Positions 18,254-28,300 are shown, counted from the stretch's first letter. The stretch: 64,000 nucleotides of DNA from an uncultured delta proteobacterium (GCA_963832165.1 CAWHTE010000001.1:288001-352000), one strand, 5' to 3'. Program-made: numbers and translations. The notes: generated from the letters alone by a model not told the origin.

Positions 18254-19906
18254 TTGAGCACAGACCAACCCGGCGACGCGGCAGCGATCACGAACGCGGG
18301 GCAGCCGCTCGCGCGCCGCGCGCGCACGGCGAAGCGGCCCGACGCGCGTCTGTCGCTCGCGCTCGCGGCGTGTCTGCTGCTCGCGGGCATCGCGTGCCGG
18401 GAGCTCTTGCGGTACTCGCCGCCGACCCCGGCTCCGCTGTCTGCCGCGGGCGAGGTCGAAGAGTGGTTCTTCGAGCCCTCCGATTCGTCCCCGATCGTGG
18501 TCCTGGTCCTGTGCGGGTGGTTGCTGTGGCGGCGGCGCGGTCGGCTCGCCGCGCTCTGGGGGCGCCAGGCGGGGTGGGGCCTCACCGCGGGCCCGTGGCT
18601 GGCCGCGCTCGCGATCTTTGGCTGGGCGGTGCGAGCGAATGTGCCCGAGCTCGAGGCGGTCGCGTTGATCCCGGTGCTGCTCGGCGCCGCGAACCTGCTC
18701 GGGGGTACGGCCGCGCTGCGCGTGGTGGCAGTTCCCGCCGCGGTGCTGTTGTTCGCGGTGCCGATTCCCGCGCCGCTGATCAACCAGATCCTCTGGGCGC
18801 TCCAGATCTGGACCGCGGACTTCACGGGGTTCCTGCTGGAGCTGCTGCGCTTCCCGGTGATCGTGTCCGGCGATCGCATCATCATGCGCGACGGGCTGTT
18901 CGCGATCATCGAGACGTGCAGCGGACTGCGCTCGATCGAGACGCTCGCGCTCCTGTCGATCCTCATGGTCGATCTGTTCGGAAGGCGCGGCGCCCACGCG
19001 CTGTTCCTGCTGCTGGTCTCTCCGGCCGTCGCGTTCCTGATCAACGGATTGCGCTGTCTCGGGCTGATCTTCAACCCGCACGCCGACGTCGCGAGCATCC
19101 ACAACCTCCAGGGAATTGCGATGCTGCTCGGCGGGGTGCTCCTGCTCTACTTCATCGACGGGCTGCTCGAGCGGTTCGGCTCGCCGCCCGAGGCGATCTC
19201 CGGGCTCGAACGACGCGCGCGCAGCGACGCAGCGCCGCGCGTCGCGCTGGCGCCGCGCGTCGCCGTGTTGGTCGGCTTCAGCGCGGTGCTCGTCGCGATC
19301 TCCTGCCTGCCCCGGTTCGCGGCGCCGGCGTTCGCCGTGCACGCGCCCGCGAGCGCCGTCGAGCGCACGCTCGACGGATGGGAGGGAGCGGAACAGGCGA
19401 CCGACTGGATGTTCCTGGGCAAGACCGGATTCGGTCAGATCATGCACCGTCGGTACACGAACGGATACGAAGCGGTCGACGCGTTCATCGGCCAGGCCGG
19501 TCCGAGCGCGCGCGTGCGCAGCTATCTGTCGCCCAAGGTCGGCTATCCCGGCAGCGGCTGGATCTCGGAGCGCGAAGAGATCGCGCGGATCGCGGGTCGC
19601 GATGCGCTGCTGCGCGTGATGCGAAAAGGCGCCTCGCGTCTGCTCGTGGCGACGTGGTTCGAGGCGTCTCCAGGCCTCGCGGTGGAGAGCGCGCGCGCGC
19701 TGCTCGGACTCGACTCGAGTCCGTTTTCGCGCTCGCGCATCCCGCTCGCGGTGCGCCTCTCCACGCCGCTCCAGGGCGCTCACGAGCGGGCGATCGACGT
19801 GAGCCGAGAGCGGCTCAGGCGGTTCGCCGAGCACCTGTCGCCCTCCCTGCAGTTGCTTTCCTCCCCGGGGGATTCCAACCTATCTGGGAAACCCTTTTCT
19901 CAATAG
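18254..19906 (+). CDS. Exosortase fused to C-terminal EpsI-like domain
   Basis: Multi-TM N-terminal half with LLFAVPIP and catalytic triad Cys (ETCSGLRS), Arg (INGLR) and His (IHNLQG), then an EpsI-like periplasmic domain (LDGWEG...RRY...SPKVGYPGSGW). The TTG start at 18254 is uncertain. Confidence 0.88.
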   Translation: MSTDQPGDAAAITNAGQPLARRARTAKRPDARLSLALAACLLLAGIACRELLRYSPPTPAPLSAAGEVEEWFFEPSDSSPIVVLVLCGWLLWRRRGRLAALWGRQAGWGLTAGPWLAALAIFGWAVRANVPELEAVALIPVLLGAANLLGGTAALRVVAVPAAVLLFAVPIPAPLINQILWALQIWTADFTGFLLELLRFPVIVSGDRIIMRDGLFAIIETCSGLRSIETLALLSILMVDLFGRRGAHALFLLLVSPAVAFLINGLRCLGLIFNPHADVASIHNLQGIAMLLGGVLLLYFIDGLLERFGSPPEAISGLERRARSDAAPRVALAPRVAVLVGFSAVLVAISCLPRFAAPAFAVHAPASAVERTLDGWEGAEQATDWMFLGKTGFGQIMHRRYTNGYEAVDAFIGQAGPSARVRSYLSPKVGYPGSGWISEREEIARIAGRDALLRVMRKGASRLLVATWFEASPGLAVESARALLGLDSSPFSRSRIPLAVRLSTPLQGAHERAIDVSRERLRRFAEHLSPSLQLLSSPGDSNLSGKPFSQ

Positions 19907-19934
19907 AGCCGAAATTGGGAATCCCCGTTCTCCA
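19885..19934. promoter_or_regulatory. Two putative enhancer-binding-protein UAS sites
   Basis: TGGGAA-ACCCTT-TTCTCA (19885-19902) and TGGGAA-TCCCCG-TTCTCC (19916-19933); imperfect palindromes 31 bp apart. Confidence 0.6.
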
Positions 19935-19968
19935 TGTCGTGTCGTTGGGACGGTAAACATTCTAGTAA

Positions 19969-19981
19969 AATCAATAGTTTA
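19969..19981 (+). promoter_or_regulatory. IHF binding site
   Basis: AATCAATAGTTTA is an exact match to WATCAANNNNTTR, in an AT-rich patch between the UAS and the promoter. Confidence 0.7.
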
Positions 19982-19997
19982 GGTCTTCGTCACCGGC

Positions 19998-20013
19998 AGG
20001 CATGTCGATTGCA
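19998..20013 (+). promoter_or_regulatory. Sigma-54 (-24/-12) promoter
   Basis: AGGCATGTCGATTGCA: GG(19999-20000)-N10-GC(20011-20012), close to TGGCACG-N4-TTGCW. Confidence 0.8.
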
Positions 20014-20235
20014 GATCAAACTGCGCAACAAAGTACGAGTGGGCACCACTCACTCGTGCCGACACAGAAGAGCGGAGGATCTGAGGCAGAGCACTCGAGT
20101 AGATGATGCGGCGGTAATTCCCGAGGGGGAGCCGAGTCGGGTGCAAAACCACAGAGATCCGCAAAGGTTCCGCTAGACACTTTCCCCCGATTCTGGCCTA
20201 ATGCCGAATACGTGTAACACCGAGGAGTAACCAGA

Positions 20236-20682
20236 ATGAAGGTCGGCGTACTGGCAACGATGGTTTTGGCAATTTCGATCGGATACCCGGTCGCGTCCTT
20301 TGCTGGGCTCGCTCCCGACGCGGACAGCGACGGTATTCCGGACGTTCTCGACAAGTGCACGATCGACTCGCGCAATGCGACCGCCGTTCCGGGCGGGACG
20401 TGCGATACGGACGTGGACGGTTACGGCAATCCGTGCGATGGAGACTTCAACCAGAACAACCTGGTCCAGGCGGATGACTTCAGCATGTTCTTCATCCCCG
20501 CGTTCAAGGGTGTAGACAAGGCACCCTGGCCCGAGGGCATGGACATGAATTGTAACAACCTGATGCAGGCGGATGACTTCAGCATGTACTTCATCCCGAA
20601 GTTCAAGAACGTTCCCGCGTTCGGCGGCGCCAAGCCGGGTCCGTCCGGTCTGTCCTGCGCCGGCACGCCGGGCTGCAGCTAG
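20236..20682 (+). CDS. Secreted thrombospondin-3-repeat + dockerin-like protein (no cargo domain)
   Basis: GAGGAG RBS; signal peptide; DADSDGIPDVLDKC...CDTDVDGYGNPCD; duplicated Ca-loop/helix GDFNQNNLVQADDFSMFF and MDMNCNNLMQADDFSMYF; C-terminal PGPSG-C-C tail. Confidence 0.8.
   Translation: MKVGVLATMVLAISIGYPVASFAGLAPDADSDGIPDVLDKCTIDSRNATAVPGGTCDTDVDGYGNPCDGDFNQNNLVQADDFSMFFIPAFKGVDKAPWPEGMDMNCNNLMQADDFSMYFIPKFKNVPAFGGAKPGPSGLSCAGTPGCS
20455..20597 (+). repeat. 44-nt direct repeat encoding the two dockerin halves
   Basis: 20455-20498 vs 20554-20597, 41/44 identical, 99-nt period. Confidence 0.95.
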
Positions 20683-20798
20683 GAAGAGTTTCTCGGAGTT
20701 TTTGATCTGAGTTTTTGTTTGACCCAACCAATCGGAATGCACCGTCGGGCCTGACTCGGCAGGCTGCAAATAGCAGAAGGACAAGAGGAGATAGGATC

Positions 20799-21323
20799 AT
20801 GAAGCGGACTTTGTTTGTTATCGCAGTCGTGCTCGGGTTCGCGACGGCGGCGAGCGCGGCAACGCTCACCGTCGTATCGGACAAGGCGGAGTACCTCGTC
20901 GGTGAGACGATCACGCTGACGGTCAGCGGCGATCCTACGGGCGTCACGACCTACGGCATCCTTGGGGAGCTCACCTACGCAGCGGGTCTGACCAACTTCG
21001 CGAGCCAGACCCAGAGGACGGACGCGCAGTACGGCGCGGGTTGGTTTGGCGGAGCGCTGACCAATGGCGACGGCGCCGCGGTTGCGTTCAATGCGGGCGC
21101 CTTCCCGGCGTCGACGACGAGCGCGGGCACGTTCTCGACGATCACGTTGCTCGCCGAGGCGGTCGGTATCGTAAACGTGGGCTGGGCCTCGAACCTGGAC
21201 TTCTTCGGCCTCACCACGGCTCCCGGCACCTCGTTCTCGATCGTGGTTCCGGAGCCGACGACCGCGGCCCTTCTGGGCCTCGGCCTGATCGGTCTCGCGC
21301 TGGGCGGTCGACGCCGCTCGTAG
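20799..21323 (+). CDS. Cohesin-like domain protein with PEP-CTERM sorting signal
   Basis: Signal peptide MKRTLFVIAVVLGFATAASA; beta-sandwich pattern VGETITLTV...YGILGELTY...GTFSTITLLAEAVG; C-terminal VPEPTTAALLGLGLIGLALGGRRRS. The PEP-CTERM signal is clear; the cohesin call is by pattern. Confidence 0.8.
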   Translation: MKRTLFVIAVVLGFATAASAATLTVVSDKAEYLVGETITLTVSGDPTGVTTYGILGELTYAAGLTNFASQTQRTDAQYGAGWFGGALTNGDGAAVAFNAGAFPASTTSAGTFSTITLLAEAVGIVNVGWASNLDFFGLTTAPGTSFSIVVPEPTTAALLGLGLIGLALGGRRRS

Positions 21324-21367
21324 AGGCGTGACTCGCAGGTTGCCGCTCCGCGGCGACCGCTAGAAAC

Positions 21368-21407
21368 AAAAAGCGCCCCGGGTCTTCACCCGGGGCGCTT
21401 TTCTTTT
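21368..21407 (+). terminator. Strong intrinsic terminator (potentially bidirectional)
   Basis: AAAAAGCGCCCCGGG-TCTTCA-CCCGGGGCGCTTTTCTTTT. Confidence 0.92.
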
Positions 21408-21465
21408 GTGCTCGGCTCGCCGAGAGCAAGGACCCGCAGCAGGCAAGCCCCGAATCCACGCTCCC

Positions 21466-21515
21466 CGTGACGCGCCTCACGAAAAACGCGTACGGCCCGG
21501 GTGACCCCGATCACC
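21466..21515. promoter_or_regulatory. Two CRP/FNR-family-like sites
   Basis: GTGA-N6-TCAC at 21467-21480 and 21501-21514. Confidence 0.4.
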
Positions 21516-21564
21516 CGGCTCCGGCGGAGACGCACCGAAATGCCAGAAGGCTTCGGGGGGCCTT

Positions 21565-23085
21565 ATGTCGAATCGGTTGGGCGTGGCTTTCACTTTTGGG
21601 ATCCTCGGGGTGGCTCTCGCCACCTCTGCGCAGGCGGTGCAGGTCGCGGGATCCTCGGTGTCCATGGGCTGGAACCCAGCCTCTGGCCCCGTGTCGGGCT
21701 ACTACGTGATCGTGTCGCGGAACTCGGCGCCCGCCAAAGTCGAGTCCGTGACGATCGAGACCAAGAAGACGATCACGGCAGCGGTCGGAGAGACGCTCGT
21801 GGTGCAGGTCGCGGCGTTCGGCCAGGACGGCGTGGCGGGCCCGGTATCCCCGGCTTCGGAATCGATCACGTTCGTGAGCTCGACTTCGACTCCGCCTCCC
21901 CCGAGCGGCGGTGGGACCACGACTCCTCCTCCCCCGCCTCCGCCGGACCCGGCGCCGGTCGAGCCCGCACCGGCGCGCGACTTCAACGGCGACGGGACCG
22001 CCGACCTCGTCGTGCAGACCGGATCGGACGTCCGGATCTGGGCGATGCAGGGCGGCAGCGTGAGCTCGGAGATCCAGCTCCCCGCCGCTCCGACCGGCGC
22101 GCGCGTGGTCGGCAATGGCGACTACGACGCCAACGGGTCGGTAGACCTCCTCTGGGAGAATTCCTCGAACGGCGCGCTCACGCTGTGGCGGCTCGGTGGT
22201 GGGGCCGTGCTCGGCTCGAGCACGCTCGATCGCAGCAGCCTGCCTGCGGGCGAAGAGTGGCACGTGGGCGGATCCGCCGACTTCGACGGCGACGGCGCAG
22301 ACGATCTGATGCTGTTCAGCCGCATCAAGGGCGAGGTCGAGGTCTGGACGTTCGCCAACGCCGCGGTCGCCACCCGGACGCGGATCCGCGGACACGCCGG
22401 GGCCTGGAGCGTCGTGGCGGCGGACGACACGGACGGCGACGGCATGGCCGAAATCGTGTGGCTCGATGAGCTGAATCGGGCGCTCGAGCTCCGCGACCCG
22501 GGCGCTGCGGCACCGGTCGCGCTCGGCAGCGTCACCTCGGGCTGGCGCGGCCGCGGCGGCGTCGACCTCGCGGGCGATGGCACCGCCGAGCTCGTGATGC
22601 ACAACACCGCGACCGGAGCGGTGCAGGACTGGGCCATCGACGACAGTGGCGTCCTAGGTGCGGTCAACCTGCCGAGCGCGTCGGGCCTCGGACGCTTCGC
22701 GGGCCACGGCGACTTCAACGCCGATGGCCGTGAGGACATCGCGTGGAGCAATCCCTCCACTCGAGCCGTGACGCTCTGGATGTCCACTTCGGGCATGCCC
22801 ACGTCGCTCGTCGTGAACCGCGCGCTGCCCACCGGCGGCGAAGTCGTGAGTGGCGCCACCGCGTCGGATGACAGCACGTTCCGCCAGCGCTTCTGCAGTG
22901 CTGATCTCGACGGCGACGGAAGAGTGAACGCGACGGATTTCACGGCGGTCTTCAGGCCGTGTCTCAATACTCCGACCGCTGCCAGCTGCCGGGTTGCCGA
23001 CATGGACAGCGATGGCCGCGTCACGACGACGGACATGTCGATCTTCAAGCTGCGCTTCCAGGCCCGATCCTGCGAGGCGTGGTAG
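21565..23085 (+). CDS. Secreted FN3-like + Pro/Thr linker + FG-GAP/VCBS repeat propeller + C-terminal dockerin protein
   Basis: Signal peptide; SVSMGWNP...GYYV...VQVAAF; poly-Pro linker; six DxxGDGxxDL-type repeats; ADLDGDGRVNATDF...ADMDSDGRVTTTDM. Confidence 0.85.
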   Translation: MSNRLGVAFTFGILGVALATSAQAVQVAGSSVSMGWNPASGPVSGYYVIVSRNSAPAKVESVTIETKKTITAAVGETLVVQVAAFGQDGVAGPVSPASESITFVSSTSTPPPPSGGGTTTPPPPPPPDPAPVEPAPARDFNGDGTADLVVQTGSDVRIWAMQGGSVSSEIQLPAAPTGARVVGNGDYDANGSVDLLWENSSNGALTLWRLGGGAVLGSSTLDRSSLPAGEEWHVGGSADFDGDGADDLMLFSRIKGEVEVWTFANAAVATRTRIRGHAGAWSVVAADDTDGDGMAEIVWLDELNRALELRDPGAAAPVALGSVTSGWRGRGGVDLAGDGTAELVMHNTATGAVQDWAIDDSGVLGAVNLPSASGLGRFAGHGDFNADGREDIAWSNPSTRAVTLWMSTSGMPTSLVVNRALPTGGEVVSGATASDDSTFRQRFCSADLDGDGRVNATDFTAVFRPCLNTPTAASCRVADMDSDGRVTTTDMSIFKLRFQARSCEAW

Positions 23086-23112: not shown

Positions 23113-25228
23113 TCACTCGCGAATCGGCTGACCCGCCGCGATCTTCCCCGCGTGCGCGCGCAACAGCGAGAGCGCCACGTCGGGCATGTTCTGCTGCTCG
23201 GCCATGGTGAGCGCTCGCGAGATCGTCGAACGCGCGTCGTCGCGGCGGCCGGCCGCGGCTTGAGCGACCGCGAGCGTGTCGAGCGCGAGCGGGTTGTCGC
23301 CGAGTGATCCGATCATCGACTCGGCGAGCTCGAGCGCTCGCTTGCCGTCGCGAAGCGGAGCGGCGGGCACCGTCGCGAGCTGGTAGGCGAGGTCGTTCAT
23401 GAGCGCCGGCGGGGAACTGCACTTCTCGATGCCCTGCTCGAGCACTTCGATCTGCTTCGCGCGCGCCCCCGTGCGCGAGTAGACGTTGGCGAGATGCGTG
23501 CGGCTGGTGAGGTCGCAGGGCCAGCGGCGCAGCGTCTCGGTCAGGGTCGTTGCCGCCTCGCGGTCCCGGCCCAGGCGCGTCAAGAGCTCGCCGAGATTGC
23601 TCCAGTACTGCTCGCGATCCGGATCGATCGCGATGCCGCGCTTCAGGCTCGTGACAGCCCCCTCCGCGAGGCCTGCGCCGAGCTGGACGTTGATCAGCAT
23701 CTGGAGGATGCCAGAGCTGTTCGGGAACTCCCGTGAGAGCTTCTCGACCAGCGTGGCGGTCTGCTGCGCATCGACGAACTGAGTGACTCCGAGCGCGTCG
23801 ACGAAAGGCTCGACCTTCGCCGCGATCAGCGTCGGGTCGGGTCCGTGCACTGCGATCGCGTCGAGCGATGGATCGTTGCCCGAGGGCGATCCTGCCACCA
23901 GGTACCCGAGGCTCTCGAGCCGCCGCTGCGTCTCGGCATCGACTTCACCACCCGCAGCGGCCGGCGCCTCGCGGCGGCTTGCGAGCAGCTGCGCGAGCCC
24001 GTGGCGCATCTGCTCGGCCCGAGCCGGCTCGGCCCCGGCCAGGTTGTTCGCTTCGGCGGGATCGGCGACCAGGTCGTAGAGCTCTGGAACGGGCTTGTGG
24101 ATCAGCTTCCAGGAGCCCGCGCGCACGAATCGCAACGGAGATACGTCGACCAGGCGCGCCAGGCTGACGGACTCGCCGTAGACCGCGCGGCTCCGGCAGT
24201 GCGCCTCCCTCGAACGCGGGGAGCAGCGAGATCCCATCCGCGGCGGGATCGGGCTCGAGCCCGGCCCAGGCGAGGATCGTCGGCGCGATGTCGATCGTCT
24301 GCACGGGTGCCGCGACGCGCCGTGCTGGCGGCACTCGCGGCCCCGCGAACACGAGCGGCACGTGCATCGTCGACTGATAGACGAGGTAGGAGTGGCGACT
24401 CTCGCCGTGATCGCCGAGACCTTCTCCGTGGTCTGCCGTGAGCACTACCAACGTGCGCTCGTCGAGCCCGAGGCGCTCGAGCTCCGCGAGTACGCGCCCG
24501 ATGCTGTCGTCGGTGAACGCGACCTCACCCGCATAGCGATCGTTGGAGAAGCGCGACTCGAACGGGACCGGCGCCGCATAGGGAAAGTGCGGGTCGTAGT
24601 AGTGGAGCCAGAGGAAGAACGGACCCGCGCGGTGCTCGCGCAGGAAGGCGATCCCGTTGCTCGAGATCTCTGCCGCGCCGCGGGAATCGAGGTTGACGGT
24701 CCTCGCCTGGGGCTCGCGCGCGACGAGGGCGCTCGGGTCGTGCAGCAATCCGTCCGCGGCGACGGCGATCTGCTTCGGCTGGACGCCGGACGAATCGAGA
24801 TCGCGAAACTGCCCGAAGCCCTGGGCGATTCCCGTCGGGCGGTTCAGGACGATGGCCGCGACCTCCGCGCCCGTGGCATAGCCGGCGTCGCGCAGCCGCT
24901 CGGCGAGCGTGACGCTCTGCTCGGCGAGCTTGTCCACGCCGTTCTCGCGCACGCGATGGTGATAGGGGTGGAGGCCGGTCAGGATCGAGGCGTGCGAAGG
25001 CAGCGTGTTAGGCGATGAGGCGTGAGCCTGCTCGAACAACACACCGCTCTTGGCCAGCTGGTCGAGGTGAGGTGACGCCCCGCTCCCGCTGCCGTAGGCG
25101 CCGAGCGCATCGGCGCGCAGGGTGTCGACCGTGATCAGCAGGACGTTCTGCGCGCTCGGCTCCGCACAGGCGATCGCCATTGCAGGTGCGAGGTAGACGA
25201 GCCAGCGGAGTCGAATGGCTGCATTCAT
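23113..25228 (-). CDS. Sulfatase-like (alkaline phosphatase superfamily) lipoprotein with C-terminal TPRs; 1-nt frameshift near 24190
   Basis: NVLLITVDTLRAD, TLPSHASILTG, WLHYYDPH, ADHGE in one frame; VYGES...WKLI...ELYDL and TPRs in another. Confidence 0.85.
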
Positions 25229-25305
25229 CGAAGCAACTATTCCCGCCGCGCCGCGTAGCTTCAAGGGGCGAAGAGCGCTTGCTCGAGGCGCTGGCGTACG
25301 GCGGA

Positions 25306-28300
25306 TCAGTTCCGGTCGTTCCCCTCGATCAGTCCGATCAGGAACGGCCGGATCCGCTCGGCGGAGATCAGACTCTCCAGGGATCCCACCTCGAGCGCGC
25401 GCTGGACGCTGTGGATCGCGTCGAACTCCGCGCCCAGCTCGGTCTGCTTCTGGAGCAGCACCTGGCGATAGGCCGCGTCGTACGCGCTGCGCGTGTCGGG
25501 CTCGTCGCGCCGCTGAGCCTCGCGCCGCAGCGCGGCCAGCGCGGGATCGCGCAATGCGCGCGCCTGGGCCTCGCGCGTGAACACGACCGCCGCCGCGGGA
25601 CCGCCCCCGATCACCGAGGCGAATGATCCCTCGACCGCGGCAGCGCGCAGGTTCGGGTTGAGCTCGCGGCTGAACACGACGTACGCGCCGCCGTGGTAGC
25701 GCGACACGACCAGGAAGATCAGCGGACCGGTGAAGTTGACCACCGCGCGCGCGATCTCGGCACCGTACTCGAGCTGGAGCTTGCGCATCGACTCGGGCGA
25801 TCCGTCGAAGCCCGAAAGGTTGGCGAGAATCACGGCCGGCCTCACGCCGCTCGCCGCGTTGAGCGCGCGCGCCACCTTCTTGCTCGACAGCGGAAACAGC
25901 GTGCCGCCGGTCCACGCGGACGGCCCGTCTGCGGGGTGATCGCCGCCGCGGTCGAGGTTGCGGCTCTCGATGCCGATCAGCGTGACCGGGTGGCCGCCCA
26001 GGCACGCGTCCCAGACGATCGCGGTCTCTGCTCCTGCCCAGCTGCGCCAGCGCTCGAGGTGGCCGAGGTCCGCGTCGATCACCGAGTTCATGAGCGCGCG
26101 CATCGCGAACGAGCGCTTGCGCTCGGCATTGGCCTCGGCGTCGAAGATCTCGCCGATCCGATCGAAGTCGTGGCCATGCGCGCGCTTGGTCGTGAACTCC
26201 GTCACGGCGCGGTGGATCGGATCCTGCGTCGCGAGCGAGCGCGGCCCCGTTTCTCCGGGCACCACGTACGAATAGCGGTAGTGCTGGTACAGGATCGCGT
26301 AGGCCTCGGCGAGATTGCGCGCGAGGAACTGCGCCTCTCCATTGGGGCCCATCACGCGCTCGTAGCCGCCGATCGCGACCTCGTCTTCGCCCGACACCGA
26401 GCCCGAAGCCGCGAGCGCGGCGCGCCCCGTGAGCACCATCGACGCGCCCGGTGTCATGATCAATACGCCGCGCGTGTGCAGGAGCATCGTCGCCAGCGCG
26501 TCGAAGTAGCTCTGCGCGCCCACGTTCACGCCCTGTACGATCACGTGGATCGAGCCGCCCGCCTGCGTGAACGTGACGATCCGGCGCACCACGCGCGCGG
26601 TGGCGTCGAGGTTCTCGGTGCCGCTGTCCATGGCGATGCGCGCGCCGCTCGAGACCGGCACCCATTCGACGGGCAGCCGGTTCGCCTCGGCGAGATCGAT
26701 CGCGGCGGCGATGCGATCGCACTCGGGCGCGGCGAGCGAGCCCATACCGAGCGTCGGGTCCGAGAGGATCAGCACGCGGCGCATGCCCCCTGGAACCGAT
26801 TCGGTAGGCGTGTCGATGATTCCGAACACGATCGCGCTGGTGTTCTGTGCGGGCGGCCGGCCCGCGACGCTCACCGCGCGCGGCGGGTCCGCGTAGGTGT
26901 CGAGGTCGTACTCCTCGAAGATCCCGGCCGGCAGCGTGCGCTCGCCTGCGAGCTCCACGGCGCCCGGCGCACCCGTGAGCATGCGGACGATCTCGTAGGG
27001 GTAGACCAGGCGGCGCCGGCGCGCTTCGACCACCTTGCGCTCGTAGGTCTGGGCCGGCTCGAGCGGGGCGTGGTGGGGCGTGCGCCACGAGAGCTCGAGG
27101 CGGCTGCCGGTCGGGTCGGCGAACACGATCTCGACCGGCTGCGACGGCGCGTCGGGTCGCGCGCGATCGAGCACGTTGAGGCGCACCACGACCTTCTCGA
27201 GGCCGAGATGACGCGTCGCCGGGTACAGGCGCCGCGCGAGGGAATCGACCAGGTCGCGGTCGAGATAGACCGACGGCGTCGCGAAGAGCATCAGCCGGTT
27301 CCACTGCAGCCGCCGGCGCGGATCCCGCAGCTGGAGGTGATTGCGCAGGCAGCGCGCGGCTTCGAAGAAGTCGCGCTCGAACGCGGCGACGTGGAGGCTC
27401 GCTTCGCGCCCGTCGGATTCGTCGGGCGAGCGCCCGCGCACGTCAGCGAACACGAGCAGTCGCTCGTCGCCCGGGATCTCCGGGCTGCGCGCGTGGAAGC
27501 AGTACAGATCCTCGGGCGCCTCGAGGCGCTCGACGTCGAACTTGCGCAGCCGCGCGAGATCGATCCGCACGGCGGTCTCGGGATGGACTCCGTGCAGCGC
27601 GCGATCCTCGCGCATCGCCGAGGAGCCGTTGCCGACCGAGTGCTCGAACGTGAGATGGGCGGGGCGTCCCGCGATCGGCAGCAGCGTGAGCGTGAGGCGC
27701 TGGGTGGAGAGCGACGGTCCGAGCAGCGGGGTGATCGCCTCGGCGACGCTCGCGACCGAGTCCTCGTCGGGGATCGGCACGAGCAGCTCGATCGCGTCGA
27801 CGCGTCGACTCGGTGCGCGCACCGCCGCGGCGCTCGCGGCGCGGCCGAGCCGTTCCAGCGTCGGCGCGAGCTCGGCCGGATTCGCCACGCTGCCGAGCAC
27901 GATGCGGTCGTCCACGAGGTCGAGCCGCTCCACGTGCACCGGGCCCACGACGCCCGAAGTGTGGGCGCGCGGTCGCTGATGCGCGTACAGCCGCCGCACG
28001 TGCGCGGCGACTGCGATCGCGCGGCGGCGCGGATCCGGGTCGGAGAGCCAGCGCCCGACGCGATCGAACACCGCGCGCGGCGAGCCCGCGAGGTGCGCGA
28101 GCACCGACTCGGGTGGATGGGTGACGGCGGCCTCGGCGGCGGCGAGCCAGCTCTCCACCTCCTTGGTGGTGCGCTCGGCCTGGCTCTCGAGGCGCGGGCT
28201 CTCGAAGATCGCATAACGTGCCTCGAGCGAGAGGTCCGCGAGCGCATCGCTGACGTGCCCGCGCATTCCGGCGATCCGCTCGAGCACTTCGTCGAGGCTC

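Follow-up and report, generated by a model that had tools for sequence, protein, structure and literature searches.

We analysed a gene locus in a stretch of 64,000 nucleotides (hereafter the window; positions 288001-352000 of contig 1 of the source genome, G000 below, one strand) from an uncultured delta proteobacterium, counting positions from the first letter of the window. The source genome comprises 5.5 Mb with a GC content of 70% and is 89% complete; because BamA, the type II secretin GspD and RpoN each score over their own cut-offs in it, the host is taken to be a diderm, and the genomes of its relatives are labelled Myxococcota or Deltaproteobacteria in the databases. The locus holds genes for an exosortase, a small secreted protein with dockerin-like repeats, a PEP-CTERM protein with a predicted cohesin fold and a secreted FG-GAP protein (Table 1). 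The original prediction, made from the window alone, had described them as four co-oriented genes of a display system in which an exosortase-anchored cohesin receives dockerin-tagged proteins. All four open reading frames (ORFs) are present on the plus strand, and no glycoside hydrolase (GH) family of Pfam matches any of the four proteins, as had been stated; the genes do not form a single unit, however, with a sigma-54-like promoter between the first and second and a 15-pair terminator between the third and fourth. The conserved core is three genes: exosortase-EpsI, the cargo-less TSP3/dockerin-like protein and the PEP-CTERM protein.

Table 1. Features of the locus, with positions in the window
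Feature	Position	Strand	Basis or remark
Exosortase with fused EpsI-like domain	18257..19906	+	start codon uncertain; PF09721 E 7e-37, PF11984 E 3e-11
Degenerate palindrome, likely enhancer-binding-protein site (putative function)	19917..19933	+	aligned promoters
IHF-site-like motif	19969..19981	+	exact match to consensus
Sigma-54 -24/-12 promoter-like site	19998..20013	+	kept in relatives' spacers
Predicted conserved 5' leader, ~210 nt	20025..20235	+	contig starts, consensus structure
Secreted cargo-less TSP3-like and dockerin-like protein, Cys-rich	20236..20682	+	F-hand repeats ~20434-20616
Single predicted cohesin-fold domain (20859-21245) with PEP-CTERM tail (21246-21320)	20799..21323	+	model, structure matches
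Intrinsic-terminator-like hairpin	21369..21402	+	15 pairs and T run
Secreted FN3-like/FG-GAP protein, C-terminal dockerin (22900-23049)	21565..23085	+	likely cargo, accessory to core

The first gene is an exosortase-EpsI gene as proposed, with an uncertain start: position 18254 is GTC, and a TTG lies at 18257. The protein scores 127.5 bits against Exosortase_EpsH (cut-off 25.7) and also matches DUF3485, while its match to TIGR02914 (EpsI, E 1e-8) stays under that family's cut-off. It contains the motifs C-S-G, N-x-x-R and H-x-x-x-G, with Cys221, Arg266 and His282, in agreement with the family motifs C-x-G, N-x-x-R and H-x-x-x-G given in the available text of PMC1569441, and a crude hydropathy scan gives six peaks, which places it in the EpsH family. 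The best NCBIfam subfamily is XrtD (TIGR04152) at 120.8 bits, against a cut-off of 400; assignment to exosortase D, which is specific for VPLPA-CTERM, was rejected on this score and because the neighbouring tail is VPEPT. Seven exosortase matches are found at about six places in the genome. The link from this exosortase to the PEP-CTERM tail is adjacency only, and the enzyme that was proposed to install the cohesin anchor may not be dedicated to it, in a genome with about 85-90 PEP-CTERM-like ORFs and several exosortases. At G000 C5:125510-157365, two other exosortases have neighbouring PEP-CTERM genes whose tails are of a distinct Cys-His variant, which suggests dedicated sorting subsystems.

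The PEP-CTERM protein (174 aa) has a signal peptide (by eye), a PEP motif, a hydrophobic helix and a basic end, and its tail is over the cut-off of both PF07589 (25.9 vs 20.7) and TIGR02595 (23.3 vs 16). Its beta-sandwich is modelled with confidence (mean pLDDT, predicted local distance difference test, 90.2; 115 homologues). In an exhaustive structural search with VIA-align the four best matches are cohesins, with Z of 13.6, 13.5, 13.1 and 13.0, and cohesins occupy seven of the first eight rows; the best aligns over 127 residues with a root-mean-square deviation of 2.7. Structures 2ZF9, 3UL4 and 4DH2 are among the matches, and identity to the matched cohesins is 8-18%. When a profile was built from 35 mature domains of related loci, without signal and tail, the first matches were five type II cohesins of A. 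cellulolyticus ScaB (E 0.003-0.014), which span the whole domain. A PDB search with the first sequence query returned only a type II cohesin at E 0.62, and an Atlas search with the domain returned a Cohesin cluster at 0.84, which serves as a lead only. Among the best 150 representatives by profile, 116 end in a PEP-CTERM-like tail (pattern match). The domain thus appears, on its predicted model, to have a cohesin fold and is probably a remote homologue of cohesins outside the Pfam family. A match to an NCBIfam toxin B-subunit family (E 0.04, 14 bits vs 204) was discarded as noise.

The original prediction had called this protein cohesin-like with a clear PEP-CTERM signal and had made its folding as a cohesin a test set in advance; both are upheld, the fold on the predicted model. 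The profile searches it had proposed gave a divided outcome: exosortase, PEP-CTERM and the dockerin of the FG-GAP protein were recovered, whereas Cohesin PF00963 and, for the small protein, PF00404 were not. Related architectures occur elsewhere. In P0345 (L099:1813-2883) a cohesin-like domain is fused to a TSP3-dockerin module without a PEP-CTERM tail; such fusions, none of which was found in the genome of the window, could possibly act as adaptors or polymerising units. In P0244, P0254, P0274, P0293, P0297 and P0309, all large PEP-CTERM proteins, the cohesin-like domain is N-terminal and BNR, FG-GAP, TSP3 or FGE-sulfatase domains come after it. Extra cohesin copies are present in L064, L065, L067 and L134, and a cohesin-like paralog at G000 C11:230516-231357 (L088) has its PEP-CTERM tail in another reading frame, through a frameshift or an assembly error.

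The small protein (148 aa) has a start that is signal-peptide-like and then TSP3-like, and two near-identical F-hand repeats. The repeats are duplicated loop-helix units with symmetric recognition positions, numbered by the convention for dockerins. Dockerin_1 is matched at E<=0.01 by 27 of 120 family members, and the Atlas neighbours of the protein carry Dockerin_1 (score 0.93); a PDB search with the second sequence query gave only a dockerin-bearing chain at E 0.86. The description of a TSP3 and dockerin protein is supported by the F-hand repeats and their symmetry; in Pfam, the TSP_3 match (E 0.007) is under the cut-off and the protein itself has no Dockerin_1 match. NCBIfam NF041540 gives three weak matches in the 120 members, and all 120 have a low-scoring similarity, far under the cut-off, to the TSP3-containing cohesion protein MtsC. 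An orphan paralog of this cargo-less dockerin lies at G000 C3:554379-554819 (L085), with no PEP-CTERM gene within 6 kb, and in one genus (L222, L223) the dockerin-PEP-CTERM cassette is tandemly duplicated behind the exosortase.

The dockerin and cohesin genes appear to form a single sigma-54 bicistron that ends in a terminator of its own. All 22 exosortase-dockerin spacers contain a -24/-12 site with two mismatches or fewer, a level reached by 71 of 2200 shuffles (3.2%), and so do 13 of 20 further loci; in the five loci without the cassette the best site has at least four mismatches, so that none reaches two. A sigma-70-type promoter was looked for and none was found. The IHF-like motif is an exact match to the consensus of that factor, and genome-wide there are two composites of IHF and sigma-54 sites, of which the window site is one. 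In most of 22 aligned promoters a GGAAAA..TTTTCC-like palindrome stands at a constant distance upstream (by eye), its copy in the window being degenerate. The arrangement recalls the PrsK-PrsR-RpoN regulon in having a sigma-54 site upstream and an RpoN gene in the genome; the best PrsK and PrsR scores in this 89%-complete genome are 415 against a cut-off of 503 and 97 against 300.

Between promoter and dockerin gene, the leader (also seen in L138 and L143-L166) has a near-invariant 18-nt block before the ribosome-binding site and a partly covarying stem; its consensus structure has two-sided changes in 6 of 33 pairs, and a long-range pairing onto the Shine-Dalgarno region is predicted. Rfam holds no credible family for it, all scores being far below the gathering scores. 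The leader may possibly be a cis-regulatory RNA. At the other end, 16 of 19 relatives have a similar terminator hairpin 3' of their first cohesin gene.

Metagenome contigs agree with these ends. Among 80 metagenome loci, 35 are contigs shorter than 2.2 kb with the whole tail, and 29 of these stop within 70 nt of the cohesin stop codon. Ten short contigs begin 190-202 nt before the dockerin ATG, in the first conserved motif of the leader, and none includes the promoter, which in long contigs is located 216-223 nt before the ATG, just upstream of these starts (L180, with a miscalled start codon, was excluded from this count). We infer that the short contigs, which match the predicted ends of the unit, represent assemblies of the bicistronic mRNA and that expression of the unit in nature is probably strong; the shortest contig listed has 1,022 nt, which favours full-length units. 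The contigs of one RNA run cover 20159-21332 piecewise, one of them spanning the dockerin-cohesin gap; as contigs can neither rank expression nor prove a single transcript, they were not used for expression level or habitat; in the sequencing reads, eight runs contain at most 0.08 of the words.

The gene order is widely kept. A TSP3-dockerin module is present in 100 of 151 genomes of the class, and a close exosortase homologue in 76. Among the 59 genomes whose best exosortase has E<=1e-65, four are uninformative, being cut by contig ends (G146 is among the contig-edge cases), and in 50 of the remaining 55 the exosortase gene is directly followed by the small dockerin gene (38 by listed coordinates and 12 of 20 inspected regions); in the other five the small dockerin gene is absent from this place. 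A PEP-CTERM gene follows the dockerin gene in all 20 larger regions. Conservation of gene adjacency, the other test set in advance, was thus passed by the exosortase-dockerin-cohesin series, the FG-GAP gene being kept in close relatives only. Run against 201 genomes of the phylum, the 35-domain cohesin profile finds matches in 8, every one a member of the order, which may reflect divergence. In the 13 loci of family f4 the exosortases are on average 63% identical and the dockerins 64%, against means of 31% for the cohesin domain and 93% for the cohesin tail. The same three genes, with the same upstream peptidase-like neighbour, are also found in a contig titled 'uncultured Spirochaetales' (L001), which is possibly mislabelled or misbinned.

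Within one protein the recognition positions of the dockerins are symmetric; they vary from genome to genome, and proteins with a dockerin tag, though unrelated, have them in common inside a genome. For positions 9, 10, 11, 14 and 15, repeats 1 and 2 of the small protein agree at 0.73, compared with 0.25 after shuffling (23 loci), and across 120 proteins at 0.72 compared with 0.30. Gene conversion as the sole cause of this symmetry was rejected, since synonymous codon identity is 0.70 both within and across genomes. In the 13 f4 loci a second, convergent cassette places a differently built mini-dockerin (about 60 aa when mature in 12 of 13; the two examined pass Pfam Dockerin_1) before a cohesin paralog. 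At positions 9, 10, 11 and 14, repeat 2 of the mini-dockerin matches the locus dockerin encoded in the same genome (0.71-0.73 vs 0.42-0.48, P 0.0003); repeat 1 does not (0.10 vs 0.12), and neither do control positions. Identical codons at the matching positions are in little excess (0.56-0.62 vs 0.49-0.54), so that selection is favoured over gene conversion. In 8 of 12 cases the two cohesins encoded by one f4 genome pair with each other with support. In 38 other modules of 14 genomes, taken from the listed matches (288 further matches lie outside the list, and two mis-parsed repeats are in the counts), positions 9-11 agree at 0.59 vs 0.23, with a peak at position 10. A genome-specific recognition code thus has good comparative support. 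L111 (G116 C250) has, beside two cohesin-like ORFs, three dockerin ORFs whose code departs from that of their own genome and is nearer to that of G083; this may be an island that was acquired together with sockets of its own.

The fourth gene, that of the FG-GAP protein, is a close-relative add-on outside the transcription unit, behind the terminator. It adjoins the cassette in both other genomes of the genus (inverted in one) and in three long metagenome contigs, and with this query was found in none of 48 family f4 genomes. The protein (506 aa) had been described as a secreted FN3/FG-GAP protein with a C-terminal dockerin: the FG-GAP repeats and the dockerin (PF00404, E 1.5e-9, 38.3 bits vs 22.9) are borne out, whereas FN3 is seen only as a weak fn3 match under the cut-off (E 0.006). 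Against NF041540 it scores 15.4 bits (cut-off 29), and the genome has one sub-threshold match to that family. Its first dockerin repeat is close to the local code in two congeneric genomes and shares one position with it in two metagenome contigs and in the window.

In the genome as a whole, 13 ORFs carry a Pfam dockerin, none of them with a PEP-CTERM tail, and four further ORFs resemble the cohesin. The domains of the NGQDA-type dockerin ORFs, the larger group, include alpha/beta hydrolase, peptidase-like, ThuA, CBM6/PKD, amidase, beta-helix and Kazal domains; no GH family was found in the 13, which hold one CBM6. No multi-cohesin scaffoldin is among the profile matches of the genome, each protein having one cohesin domain; the marks of a cellulosome, a multi-cohesin scaffoldin and dockerin-bearing GHs, were thus not seen in these two sets. 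G000 C1:26182-40186 (L084) has four NGQDA-dockerin cargo genes on either side of two small PEP-CTERM genes (G000 C1:32709-34255), which are paralogs and share conserved cysteines; the two PEP-CTERM proteins, for which no sequence link to the cohesins was found, are candidates for a second, orthogonal receptor class. A large ORF at G000 C11:873212-877567 (L093) has many TSP3 repeats and two TSP3-dockerin modules in tandem. Downstream of the locus, on the minus strand of the window (23113-27304), sulfatase-like and TPR coding appears to be spread over more than one reading frame, a possible frameshift or assembly error unrelated to the cassette.

Taken together, we favour with moderate confidence a reading in which the cohesin-fold PEP-CTERM protein and the cargo-less dockerin bind each other, in a calcium-dependent manner, at the cell envelope, as an exosortase-sorted socket that is open to cargo of the same code. 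The N-terminus of each protein resembles a signal peptide, and the cohesin has PEP-CTERM at its other end. This tail would be cut by an exosortase, probably the one encoded next to it, and the cohesin thereby fixed to the envelope or matrix. The empty dockerin, if co-transcribed, would be its default and roughly stoichiometric partner, giving a two-subunit coat element and not an empty board; since the dockerin encoded alongside is without cargo, an empty plug likely occupies the socket by default. Other secreted proteins tagged with TSP3-dockerins, such as the FG-GAP protein, may compete for the sockets by virtue of the shared code. The repeats would behave as the dual-mode dockerins described in the available text of PMC12484212, given their symmetry. 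The socket diverges fast between genomes while the plugs of one genome keep matching positions, so display would be lineage-specific. Of the modular 'plug-board' that had been proposed, the genome-specific code and the other dockerin-tagged secreted proteins speak for modularity, but the default plug would be empty and the FG-GAP gene lies outside the unit.

Several results weigh against this reading. Concerning the cohesin, PF00963 has no match in the protein or the genome, and in relatives matches 1 of 35 at E 0.052 and, at E<=0.01, 2 of 135; another profile, built from 135 relatives at full length (omitting 15 of the 150 representatives, all longer than 400 aa), found antibody chains only and no cohesin in the PDB. 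The CLIPPER domain 9IFR is Foldseek rank 1, with cohesins mostly after it and a tying Z of 12.9, and pilin CnaA domains reach a Z of about 11. Concerning the small protein, PF00404 is silent as noted above, its AlphaFold model is poor and unreliable (mean pLDDT 55.5, no fold match), and the best 60 PDB matches of its repeat profile are calmodulin-type EF-hands, with no dockerin. Concerning the code, kin are not independent in its statistics, and control positions of the cargo modules also show a within-genome excess (0.41 vs 0.28), so that recent duplication explains part of it. With exosortase divergence removed, dockerin-code similarity is not significantly related to cohesin similarity (partial r 0.21, P 0.15, 13 loci). 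The FG-GAP dockerin of the window (N-A-T, T-T-T) matches the small dockerin (Q-A-D twice) at position 10 in one repeat only, and 10 of the 13 dockerin ORFs share the NGQDA-type repeat and so belong to another type. Finally, the location of processed PEP-CTERM proteins is unsettled, and the substrates of cyanoexosortase B are partly periplasmic, according to the available text of PMC12188702.

These points give some room to the view that the two products are co-regulated coat or matrix proteins which do not interact, the first a PepA-like, sigma-54-driven matrix protein that is merely cohesin-like and the second a calcium-binding protein that self-associates or binds something else. PepA of Aquincola, as described in the accessible part of PMC9850573, is RpoN-dependent, has its own terminator and promotes flocs, and the generic EF-hand likeness of the repeats, the non-significant covariation with the cohesin and the number of PEP-CTERM-like ORFs in the genome are all compatible with such proteins. 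We nevertheless regard this view as unlikely: it leaves unexplained that two differently built dockerins each precede a cohesin paralog, that variable dockerin positions agree within a genome, that in 8 of 12 cases the cohesin paralogs of a genome pair with each other and that cohesin-dockerin fusions exist.

Also unlikely is that the pair binds as a cross-linker, in which the symmetric empty dockerin and the tail-less fusions bridge or extend cohesins to form a lattice or filaments, which could serve self-recognition by joining no cells but those of the same code. A cargo-less, internally symmetric dockerin on the same predicted transcript would suit that role, as would the fusions themselves, the fast divergence of the cohesin domain relative to its neighbours and its own tail, and the sub-threshold MtsC similarity of the whole small-protein family. 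Symmetry alone does not equal two binding sites, however, since a type I dockerin with such symmetry binds a single cohesin in either of two orientations (PMC12484212, available text); moreover, the genome of the window yielded no fusion, and only one repeat of the f4 mini-dockerin retains the code.

It is quite improbable that the pair binds without surface display, the cohesin being periplasmic or released into an extracellular polymer where it holds dockerin-tagged proteins. The partly periplasmic substrates of cyanoexosortase B agree with this, and no polysaccharide-export family was seen among the four genes, where no search was aimed at such families; the hydrolase-like and carbohydrate-binding domains of the tagged proteins, on the other hand, suit an outer location, and a type II secretin is present in the genome. 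Very improbable is a CnaA-like adhesin stalk domain of the CLIPPER/DUF11 or pilin type in place of a cohesin: 9IFR is 20% identical, and Lys29 (88%) and Asn126 (70%) are conserved in the close family, where the CLIPPER triad is a Lys-Asp-Asn isopeptide that some DUF11 domains lack (10.1101/2025.04.25.650565, available text), but there is no conserved Asp after the third strand, a Gly is the sole near-invariant residue across 35 distant members, a D-K motif is shared with type II cohesins, DUF11 matches 1 of 35 at E 0.06 and the domain is mostly single, with no tandem stalk. Because of the ScaB profile matches and the absence of the conserved triad Asp, the sequence favours cohesin over CLIPPER.

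Among known systems, the nearest are the single-cohesin scaffoldins of Gram-positive bacteria, which likewise have one cohesin-fold domain and a C-terminal envelope anchor: R. flavefaciens ScaE has a sortase LPXTG anchor, and C. thermocellum OlpA and OlpC are anchored by SLH domains. The locus differs from them in the PEP-CTERM tail and exosortase of a diderm, in a dockerin that is cargo-less, Cys-rich and fused to a TSP3-like part, and in the lack of a multi-cohesin scaffoldin or GH among the tagged ORFs scanned in the genome. The partner dockerins of those scaffoldins also have duplicated F-hands and lineage-specific recognition positions (PMC12484212, available text). With the PEP-CTERM/exosortase systems (Haft 2006, PMC1569441, in part) the locus shares an EpsH-family enzyme with three motifs and a fused EpsI domain, and with sigma-54-controlled PepA (PMC9850573, in part) a PEP-CTERM gene that lies between a -24/-12 promoter and a terminator. 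Unlike these and Nostoc CrtB (PMC12188702), as far as the accessible texts describe them, it is a two-gene unit led by a partner without PEP-CTERM, its substrate has a cohesin fold, and neither PrsK nor PrsR is over cut-off.

Use of such modules outside cellulose degradation is shared with the non-cellulosomal cohesins of C. perfringens (GH33 and GH84C modules) and A. fulgidus (2XDH), and with the hypothetical planctomycete 'planctosome', which also has TSP3 repeats; the anchor proposed for the latter is a 2,210-aa lamin-tail-domain protein, and the available text mentions no exosortase (PMC6461901). The NCBIfam family NF041540, 'GC-type dockerin domain-anchored protein', has a similar dockerin-like C-terminal tag, but the locus proteins are below its cut-off. 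Omnitrophota giant proteins carry dockerin and TSP3 repeats with no PEP-CTERM in the portion of the source available, and exosortase and dockerin co-occur in PMC5244752, where the accessible text treats them separately. A full-text literature search for PEP-CTERM with cohesin and/or dockerin found nothing, although surveys of non-cellulosomal cohesins and of exosortase subfamilies may mention such architectures. The locus is real and conserved, and it combines two known systems in a new way that did not turn up in the literature searched.

A bolder version, which we consider doubtful, is that the exosortase-anchored cohesin, the abundant empty dockerin and the tail-less adaptors make a self-assembling coat with a genome-specific code, which would hold only the enzymes of its own cell and may cross-link kin only. 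If true, it would be a diderm counterpart of the cellulosome logic, concerned with ownership of public goods and self-recognition. The favoured reading, for its part, would show how a diderm can retain the enzymes that it secretes. PEP-CTERM proteins, the majority of which are without an assigned role, would gain a job as sockets, and the dockerin-tagged proteins of Gram-negative bacteria would gain a receptor. The small soluble pair makes the action of exosortases on their substrates and the partners of non-cellulosomal dockerins directly testable, and its genome-specific natural versions could supply orthogonal cohesin-dockerin parts.

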